From a virus (taxonomy: Duplodnaviria > Caudoviricetes): a stretch of DNA of 64,000 nucleotides. The stretch covers positions 24,117-88,116 of the IMG/VR virus record IMGVR_UViG_2519899649_000001. The stretch is one strand, 5' to 3'. Below the pieces are notes generated by a model. It was not told the origin of the DNA. It saw nothing but the letters and a program-made list of their open reading frames with translations, and ran no database searches. The stretch's first letter is position 1, and each line of letters opens with the position of its first letter. The position numbers were made by a program, and so were the translations under genes. This document shows, in pieces, positions 58,943 through 60,784 of the stretch.

Positions 58943-59772
58943 GTGGTGGCAGGTCGCAGGGTGTCGGTGGTGGCGGACTGGTGCGCCGCCGACGCGACGG
59001 AAGAACAAGCCGCGCAGATCCGTGAGCGCTTGGTCGTCGCGCTGGAGCAGACCGGCCTGCCTTTGAAGATCACTACGTACATCGAGGAGAACCCGCCTGT
59101 CGACGAGGTGGATGGGTGACCGGCGACCCGATTGCGGAGCTGAACCGCGAGGAGTGGAAGGACGTTCCGTACTCGCTGGAGCTGCGGGGTGGCCATAAGG
59201 ATGGGGAGCGGATCGAGTGGCATGAGCTGCCAACGGTGTTTCGCGTCCCGATGTCGACCGAACGTCCCGAGGTATCCCGTTTTCCTTTGTGGATGCTTCC
59301 GCCACTCGACCCAACCCGGCCGCACGCGTACCTGCCGGACATTCAGGTCGCCGACTACCGCCGTACCTATCAGGTCACCGACGACGGCGCCCACGTATAT
59401 GAGCTGTGGGACTGATCGCGGCTGTTCGCTGTTGGTGCGTCTTGTTCGTAAGTGTTCGTTTCGCGGACCTGGGAGGGCCAGGTTCGTAGCGTCCCGGGCA
59501 TGAAGGTGAAACCGATACCAGGTACGCCGTTCGGGATCGTTCTGGGTGCGGGGCGAGCGTGGCTGATGTGTGCCGTGTGTGGGGGGGACCAGCAGGCGGT
59601 TCTCGCTGGCGCAGGCCGACAGGAGCAGGCGGTTGCCTGTGTCGTGGGGTTGGTTGCGGTACCACCGGTTCACGCGGAAGCATCACGCGTGTGCGGTGGC
59701 GACACGGCAGTTGGATTAGCCGCCCAGATGGAGCGAATGGTGGAGGAGCACGGTGACCTGTCCGAGGTGTGA
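58943..59772 (+). other. Short hypothetical ORFs 58943-59119, 59116-59415 and about 59500-59772
   Basis: GTGA coupling; modest codon bias. Confidence 0.45.
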
Positions 59773-59922
59773 AGGCGAGCTGGGGGAGCACCCGGCCCGG
59801 TCGCGGATGAGCGTGGAGCGTGAGGAGCGGATCTGCGCGGACTGCGGATTGGACGAGGCCGTGCGGGAGAGTTCGGAGCTGGCGCCGATCCCGCCGAACG
59901 AGTGGCCGGTGCGGCGTTCTGC

Positions 59923-59951
59923 TTGAAACTGTCAGACCCCGGGGATAGCGT
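59923..59951 (+). promoter_or_regulatory. Sigma-A/HrdB-type promoter for the CRISPR mini-array
   Basis: TTGAAA (59923-28), 17 bp, TAGCGT (59946-51); ends 17 nt before repeat 1. Confidence 0.7.
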
Positions 59952-59968
59952 CGGAGACGTGAGGTTGA

Positions 59969-60058
59969 GTGTTCCCCGCGCATGCGGGGATGATCCTCAG
60001 GCTGTGTAAGGCTTACCGGTCTTACCGATGTGCTCCCCGCGTATGCGGGGATGCAACG
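59969..60058 (+). CRISPR. Type I-E CRISPR mini-array (repeat-spacer-repeat), no cas genes in the window
   Basis: R1 GTGTTCCCCGCGCATGCGGGGATGATCCT (29 nt); spacer CAGGCTGTGTAAGGCTTACCGGTCTTACCGAT (32 nt); R2 GTGCTCCCCGCGTATGCGGGGATGCAACG; period 61. Confidence 0.9.
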
Positions 60059-60230
60059 ACCCGGCCGCCAGCCGGGGACGTCTTCATTGAGGAGTGAGCC
60101 GTCAAGGCACACAAAGCAAGACCTCGCAAACGCCTTTGGGCGTCTTCGCTTCATCGAGGTGCGAGCTATCACTGGATAGCGTGGCTGATCCTCAACTGTC
60201 GCGGGGGCTTCGGTTCCCGCCCTTCATCGC
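60059..60230 (+). ncRNA. Candidate structured RNA co-transcribed with the mini-array
   Basis: Nested stems TTGAGGA/TCCTCAA, AGCC/GGCT, ACCTCG/CGAGGT, ACGCC/GGCGT, GCTATC/GATAGC, plus a C-UUCG-G hairpin. Confidence 0.55.
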
Positions 60231-60263
60231 AAGAGCCCCGCTTCGGCGGGGCTTTTTGCTTTT
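60231..60263 (+). terminator. Intrinsic terminator
   Basis: AGCCCCGC-TTCG-GCGGGGCT-TTTTGCTTTT. Confidence 0.9.
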
Positions 60264-60340
60264 GGCTCGATCGGTATTGGCTCGGCGCTTTTGGCCTCGT
60301 GCGGCCCCACTTCCCTCTTGGCCGGCGGTAGCGTGGTGGA

Positions 60341-60784
60341 GTGGATGACGAGCTGCTGCACGAGTTGGTCACGGGCCTGATGCGCGAGGTCCGCAGCGAG
60401 GCGGTCGGCAGACACGAGGTGGACGAACGTGTCCTGGTGGCTTGGGCGACCGAGCGTCCGGTCGTTTTCTGTGGGGAGCCACTGGTCGCTTCGGCGCGGT
60501 CTGTGCTGTCGCTGGTGAACGACTCGGGCATCCCGTTTCGCGAGCAGCAGCTGGACGAGACCCTGCTGAAGGGGTCCGATCCCGATGCCGTGCTGCTGGC
60601 GGGCACCGCGCTTACGAGCAAGGGCAGGCGCCTGGTGGTGGAGGCGTTCATCCCCGAGGGCAACAGCTTGTGGATGGCGTGGATTGAAGGCGACCCGATC
60701 GAGTGGGTGGGGGAATTCCGTCAGGCCCGGCTGCCTGCGATACCGAAGTGGATCGGGCGTCTGTTGGGCGTGCTGGAGCGGTAG
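60341..60784 (+). CDS. Hypothetical protein (probably leaderless)
   Basis: TAGCGT lies 6 nt upstream of the GTG. Confidence 0.55.
   Translation: MDDELLHELVTGLMREVRSEAVGRHEVDERVLVAWATERPVVFCGEPLVASARSVLSLVNDSGIPFREQQLDETLLKGSDPDAVLLAGTALTSKGRRLVVEAFIPEGNSLWMAWIEGDPIEWVGEFRQARLPAIPKWIGRLLGVLER

Follow-up and report, generated by a model that had tools for sequence, protein, structure and literature searches.

A pair of CRISPR repeats lies within a stretch of virus DNA of 64,000 nucleotides (the window, by which we mean that whole stretch). Is this a genuine array, where did it come from, and what could a virus use it for? The preliminary description, made from the sequence alone, read the locus as a phage-borne type I-E mini-array with a promoter of its own, through which the phage would programme host Cascade to silence a promoter, for example that of the host cas operon, or to attack a competing element.

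The unit has one 32-nt spacer between two 29-nt repeats, and its features are listed in Table 1. A repeat finder pairs the two repeats at a spacing of 61 nt, which is the period of the host's own I-E arrays. Both keep the same 7-bp stem (TCCCCGC/GCGGGGA) with a tetraloop, and the only differences of Repeat 2 from Repeat 1 are position 4, one base of the loop and the last five nucleotides. The hairpin pattern was matched 23 times per strand across the 6.7-Mb genome, nearly always within CRISPR arrays, whereas the reversed control gave 0 and 1 matches, and the repeat pair is therefore not a product of chance. Cas6e cuts at the base of the repeat hairpin, and since only the 3' end of Repeat 1 is usable as a handle, one canonical crRNA of 61 nt is possible; its predicted ends assume a cut at the 3' base of each hairpin. 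The mini-array is thus a genuine type I-E unit with one guide, and the two repeats, the intact hairpins, the 29+32 geometry and the single canonical crRNA left by a degenerate second repeat are all as the preliminary description had given them. It is not an adaptive CRISPR array, as it keeps only a 7-nt remnant of a leader end and the assembly has no I-E cas1 or cas2.

A third, degenerate repeat was considered at 60164-60192 and rejected, as it lacks a hairpin half and is out of register. A coding reading of 59969-60348 was also rejected; the open reading frames there begin within the repeats or directly on GAGGA without spacing.

Table 1. Features of the mini-array and its immediate surroundings, with positions in the window
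Feature	Position	Strand	Remarks
Upstream neighbour, 57-aa ORF	59753..59926	+	CxxC...CxxC, zinc-ribbon-like; ORF list, GC3 filter
Putative -35 hexamer, TTGAAA	59923..59928	+	Read from the sequence
Putative -10 hexamer, TAGCGT	59946..59951	+	17 nt after the -35 hexamer; inferred start near 59958
GTTGAGT	59962..59968	+	Likely CRISPR leader-end remnant
Repeat 1 (R1), GTGTTCCCCGCGCATGCGGGGATGATCCT	59969..59997	+	Type I-E, 29 nt, hairpin intact
crRNA 5' handle, AUGAUCCU		+	Last 8 nt of Repeat 1; predicted
Predicted mature crRNA	59990..60050	+	61 nt: 8-nt handle, 32-nt spacer, 21-nt hairpin
Spacer, CAGGCTGTGTAAGGCTTACCGGTCTTACCGAT	59998..60029	+	32 nt, 53% GC, internal 8-bp hairpin
Repeat 2 (R2), terminal repeat, GTGCTCCCCGCGTATGCGGGGATGCAACG	60030..60058	+	Hairpin intact, last 5 nt degenerate (CAACG)
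Stretch without coding, probably co-transcribed	60059..60230	+	No credible ORF; hairpin at 60060-60076
Intrinsic terminator	60231..60266	+	11-bp GC-rich stem, then T run; strong; terminator scan
Downstream neighbour, 147-aa ORFan	60341..60784	+	No Pfam or PHROG family

The array is indeed phage-borne. The whole window falls inside an integrated prophage of 113.2 kb (C1:600578-713785) in the genome of a high-GC actinomycete, in an island whose GC content, 66%, is below the 73.7% of the genome as a whole. An imperfect direct repeat of about 50 bp marks the two ends of this island (C1:600578-600625 and C1:713738-713785, both outside the window). By translation this repeat is the 3' end, encoding the C-terminal end, of an acyl-CoA-dehydrogenase-like gene, which suggests that the phage integrates there and restores the gene. 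A tyrosine integrase adjoins the right-hand copy. The prophage encodes a large terminase, portal, tail sheath, baseplate J, DnaB-like helicase, PolA, ribonucleotide reductase and RecA, together with DNA methylases and two tyrosine integrases, and by this gene content it is a temperate myovirus in the integrated state. Among known phages the nearest to it are LuckySocke, BRock and pSt2308, which are Streptomyces phages of about 113 kb with a PolA identity of 43-44%, and two IMG/VR contigs are about as distant. None of these five nearest relatives carries a I-E repeat, suggesting that the array is a lineage-specific gain, which could be neutral. No related prophage was found at the DNA level among 400 genomes of the family.

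Neither the window nor the prophage gave a match to Cse1, Cas6e, Cas3-core, Cas1 or Cas2e. The absence of cas1, cas2, cas3 and Cascade genes first reported for the window thus extends over the entire prophage (C1:600578-713785), a viral genome without cas genes. Mimics of the host's I-C or I-B repeats were likewise not found in the prophage. The array fills a 414-nt intergenic gap between the two neighbours listed in Table 1. The stop codon of the 57-aa ORF overlaps the -35 hexamer, and its family matches are weak only. The 147-aa ORFan matched nothing but its own sequence among 5.8 billion protein clusters and belongs to no Pfam or PHROG family. The flanking ORFs gave no family match and no Acr or Aca signal.

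The dedicated promoter of the preliminary description can be kept as a putative one. Its two hexamers, TTGAAA and TAGCGT separated by 17 nt, fit the Streptomyces-type consensus TTGACN/TAGRRT, whose -10 element TAGRRT is well established, whereas a scan for E. coli-type promoters reported none at the array. A relaxed motif (TTGANN-N16-18-TAGNNT) occurs once on the two strands of the 119-kb prophage region, exactly here, and shuffled sequences contain 1.7 on average. The probability of finding it within 46 nt of Repeat 1 is roughly 4 in 10,000 (60-nt window, right strand), under a definition that was chosen post hoc. Judged from the sequence, the position of this promoter-like motif directly before Repeat 1 is notable. 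At the other end, the terminator lies about 170 nt downstream of the array. The predicted transcript of 309 nt keeps both repeat hairpins intact in its fold (z = -3.9), and the spacer forms its own hairpin of 8 bp there.

The roughly 170 nt between Repeat 2 and the terminator appear to be a structured, non-coding RNA, for which no homologue and no Rfam family were found; an Rfam search of 60059-60230 gave sub-threshold matches only, driven by the terminator. Cas6e cleavage would free this RNA with a degenerate 5' handle.

Any use of the guide would depend on the Cas proteins of the host. The host does encode type I-E Cascade and Cas6e, in an intact cse1-cse2-cas7-cas5-cas6e operon at about C1:480.5-485.6 kb (locus L024), though I-E cas3, cas1 and cas2 were not found in the assembly by profile searches reading through stop codons. 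No gap in the assembly exceeds 586 nt, so that none could conceal a cas3 gene, and the Cas3 and Cas1 matches of the host fall in two loci of other types, one I-C and one I-B-like. The I-E operon has no adjoining array. It is the nearest cas operon to the mini-array, 200 kb away and outside the prophage, so that none lies just beyond the window. This potential effector of the spacer is divergent, its Cse1 scoring 220 bits where relatives reach about 400, and several of its genes falling below the NCBIfam cut-offs. The host's own I-E arrays are located on contigs C24, C2 and C6. Repeat 1 is identical to the nearest host repeat, in the array of contig C24, at 25 of 29 positions, including the entire stem and six of the eight handle positions. 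The host can probably process and load the mini-array RNA. Cleavage of a target by the I-E system is doubtful in the present strain, because the host assembly lacks I-E cas3. No spacer of the host, of any type, matches the prophage.

Several other CRISPR features of the host were observed. The 3.9 kb upstream of the I-E operon hold a 1317-aa ORF without a Pfam match. The host further possesses a type I-C locus that looks complete and has a 17-repeat array, as well as a type I-B-like locus accompanied by two arrays (C6:259500-260720 and C8:64640-67860). A I-E spacer on contig C2 (C2:508200-508231) matches a chromosomal site (C10:191685-191716) with two mismatches and a TCC flank. The repeat that precedes this spacer ends in C instead of G, which is as expected if the last base of the repeat is copied from the PAM. 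Two one-spacer mini-arrays with degenerate I-E-like repeats (CTSYGCCCCGC...GCGGGGATG) are located on the minus strand at C3:592503-592592 and C3:597205-597294 (locus L026), each preceded, at a distance of about 20 nt, by a -10-like hexamer. The surrounding island is lower in GC, contains DUF397 and HTH_31/DUF5753 genes and is not part of a phage. A three-repeat unit (C6:104737-104860) and a solitary repeat (C3:102253) are also present. Such degenerate units in non-phage DNA of the host indicate that mini-arrays can also arise as debris.

The repeats closest to Repeat 1 belong to another genus of the family. A one-spacer array in the chromosome of a related genus (G059:C42:70319-70408, in locus L014 at 1501-1590) shares the repeat pair of the phage unit but not its spacer. 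Its first repeat is identical to Repeat 1 at 28 of 29 positions, the first 22 nucleotides of its second repeat are all identical to those of Repeat 2, and the spacer is 32 nt long in both. The phage unit therefore appears to descend from a working type of array. In the chromosomal array the leader is complete and conserved, and a T run directly follows the hairpin of the second repeat, whereas the phage unit has a 7-nt leader remnant and its own promoter-like motif. This remnant, GTTGAGT, resembles the GTTCAGT or GTTTAGT that stands before the first repeat in chromosomal arrays of that genus. Taken together with the shared repeat pair, the leader-like heptamer means that the phage unit is, from its sequence, best read as a whole small array that was captured and has lost its leader. 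In the L014 array, the terminal repeat and the T run may double as a terminator.

The layout itself is found elsewhere among viruses. Three unrelated high-GC IMG/VR contigs (L048, L056 and L046) carry a repeat, a 32-nt spacer and a 3'-degenerate repeat, with an AT-rich -10-like site upstream. The closest single repeat is on a further IMG/VR contig (L054). Another unrelated high-GC contig (L049) has a I-E mini-array of like build whose repeats are only about 50 nt apart, implying spacers of about 21 nt.

What the guide may be aimed at was addressed by searches of the host, of its relatives and of virus, plasmid and metagenome collections. The spacer has no match within eight mismatches in the host genome and no seed match inside the prophage, on which grounds self-targeting was rejected; the lack of a match in the window, first seen by eye, was thereby confirmed. 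A genome-wide search for seed and PAM gave matches at chance level only. One of these, on contig C24 near the array there, lies within an ORF and at 10 of 12 positions is at chance level as well. Matches in INPHARED phages and PLSDB plasmids were at most 22 nt long, with E-values of 0.7 or higher. There was no match in IMG/VR, searched with three patterns in which every sixth base was free, nor in 400 genomes of the same family with up to three mismatches. The spacers of the IMG/VR mini-arrays did not match the present genome either. A scan of JGI metagenomes returned six matches from three independent sequences, 21-23 of 32 positions being identical overall. These were rejected as targets, as they agree with the spacer at the 20 specified bases only and differ at all three free positions. 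In none of the collections searched, then, was a match to another virus or mobile element found, and the phage group to which this prophage belongs is barely sampled. The proposed attack on a competing element accordingly found no full match among the phages, plasmids, genomes and metagenomes searched.

The cas loci were compared with the spacer separately. For its first 14 positions, the best match to the host's I-E, I-C and I-B loci was 10 of 12, a score that random 12-kb windows give more often than any other, and twelve I-E cas loci from seven related genomes, scanned over 13.8-18 kb around each cse1, gave nothing above chance. Silencing of a cas promoter, as put forward in the preliminary description, is therefore without support from these loci.

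The same description had taken the spacer for non-coding operator or promoter DNA, on account of a GTAAG-G-CTTAC dyad and a doubled CTTACCG. Both elements are present, but the conclusion is not borne out. The spacer's GC content equals that of the PolA genes of the BRock-like relatives (52.7-53.0%), which are coding, and its reverse strand holds one open frame, IGKTGKPYTA. The six metagenome matches are coding and share TGKPYTA with the reverse strand of the spacer, agreeing with it only at non-wobble positions of this frame. The peptide GKTGKPYT was not found in five related phage records, and the BRock-like phages gave no match to the spacer at the DNA level either. These features are a weak hint that the spacer comes from coding DNA of a lower-GC phage, which is at least as likely as an operator.

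We tentatively favour, at a little short of an even chance, the explanation that the captured array supplies one crRNA to host Cascade, aimed at a competing element not yet sampled. An ancestor of the temperate myovirus would have captured a one-spacer I-E array, consisting of leader end, first repeat, spacer and terminal repeat, which, together with a promoter-like site of sigma-70 type and a terminator, would now form a moron-like unit. In the lysogen or early in infection, a transcript of about 300 nt would be cut by host Cas6e at both hairpins, and the single 61-nt crRNA would be loaded into host Cascade and direct it to a site of 32 bp on another mobile element, a lower-GC competing phage being the likeliest. 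The competitor would be excluded, by cleavage in hosts with a I-E Cas3 and by binding only in the present host, which seemingly has none. We infer that the array is transcribed and its RNA processed and loaded, and likewise what kind of target it has. In support of a functional guide, we count the canonical geometry, with intact hairpins and a degeneracy limited to the unused 3' end of Repeat 2; a promoter-like motif unique in 119 kb, a strong terminator and the folding of both hairpins; the host's cse1-cse2-cas7-cas5-cas6e genes, the repeat pair shared with the chromosomal array and the recurrent layout in IMG/VR; the 414-nt gap in a prophage with direct repeats and structural, PolA and integrase genes; and the agreement in GC between the spacer and BRock-like relatives. 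It has also been reported that most spacers of viral mini-arrays target related viruses (PMC11656645, PMC6858448). Against it count the missing protospacer and the relatives without a I-E repeat, the divergent host Cascade without I-E cas3, cas1 or cas2, the four mismatches of Repeat 1 to the nearest host repeat, two of them in the 8-nt handle, and the scattered degenerate mini-arrays in non-phage DNA of the host.

The unit may instead be an inert passenger, a CRISPR fragment gained by illegitimate recombination and not yet decayed, with a fortuitous promoter motif or irrelevant read-through from the upstream operon. Consistent with this, no known relative has the array, the searches gave no target, the present host has neither the nuclease nor the adaptation genes of type I-E, similar orphan mini-arrays exist in its non-phage DNA, and the leader-end remnant would follow from simple capture of a chromosomal unit; the 1.7 relaxed promoter motifs expected by chance are also close to the one observed. 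We nevertheless hold this to be rather unlikely, since both hairpins and the functional handle have stayed intact between flanks that match no genome searched, the promoter-like motif and the terminator bracket the unit precisely, and the same layout recurs in unrelated viral contigs. Alternatively, the unit might act as an RNA anti-CRISPR that shields the phage from I-E immunity, either by soaking up Cas6e or Cascade, as Racrs do, or by reprogramming Cascade on a cas or defence promoter in the manner of Cracr or CreR. A promoter directly before repeat-like units in a phage without cas genes is what Racr and Cracr loci show (PMC10651486; 10.1101/2024.10.29.618823; PMC10120712), experimental validation exists for both Cracr arrays and Racrs of type I-E (PMC10651486; bioRxiv 10.1101/2024.10.29.618823; PMC10120712), and any repeat RNA that is processed takes up Cas proteins in competition with the crRNAs of the host. 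This role appears improbable to us, however, as neither the cas loci of the host nor the twelve I-E loci of its relatives were matched above chance, the spacer is not shortened, there are two repeats instead of a solitary one, the flanking ORFans carry no Acr or Aca signal, and no host spacer of any type targets the prophage.

Beyond exclusion of a competitor, if the divergent Cascade and Cas6e operon truly has no I-E nuclease, adaptation genes or adjoining array to go with it, the crRNA from the prophage could make this Cascade a programmable repressor for the phage, phage guide and host effector forming a composite silencing system, although we consider this a long shot. Guides for it might also come from the orphan mini-arrays of the chromosome, which have -10-like sites of their own.

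As a virus-borne CRISPR mini-array, the locus is of a kind already known. Such mini-arrays have been described from the Saccharolobus portogloboviruses SPV1 and SPV2 and from prophages (Medvedeva et al. 2019, PMC6858448; review PMC11656645). Those arrays have one or two spacers between host-type repeats, and the present array, with its single spacer, shares with them a promoter of its own, putative here, and a virus that lacks cas genes and would depend on host Cas proteins. Unlike them, it has type I-E repeats that are near to those of the host but not identical, resides in the prophage of an actinomycete myovirus, and is accompanied by no matching virus found here and by a host seemingly without a I-E nuclease. 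The repeat-spacer-repeat layout with a degenerate distal repeat is shared with Cracr and CreR (Liu et al., bioRxiv 10.1101/2024.10.29.618823; Shmakov et al. 2023, PMC10120712), which are also phage- or prophage-borne and of which type I-E examples are known; acr or aca genes are frequently, though not always, linked to them. Their spacers, some of them shortened, form partial pairing with cas or creT promoters at sites beside a PAM, whereas the present spacer has full length, without an above-chance match to the cas loci tested and hence no such pairing of its 5' part. With Racrs (Camara-Wilpert et al. 2023, PMC10651486) the unit shares repeat mimicry, a cas-less phage and an upstream promoter, here again putative. 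Racrs are single repeats, often beside acr genes, whereas this unit has two repeats and a full spacer between ORFan neighbours, and is not a solitary repeat of that type.

The present array adds an actinomycete example, from a large temperate myovirus, to the known phage-borne mini-arrays. It also offers a rare view of the origin of such a unit, as its repeat pair is also present in a chromosomal array of a related genus, and the phage still has a short piece of the leader. Furthermore, a host with Cascade but apparently without Cas3 is a simple system, in which a phage guide may act via cleavage, via binding alone, or not at all.
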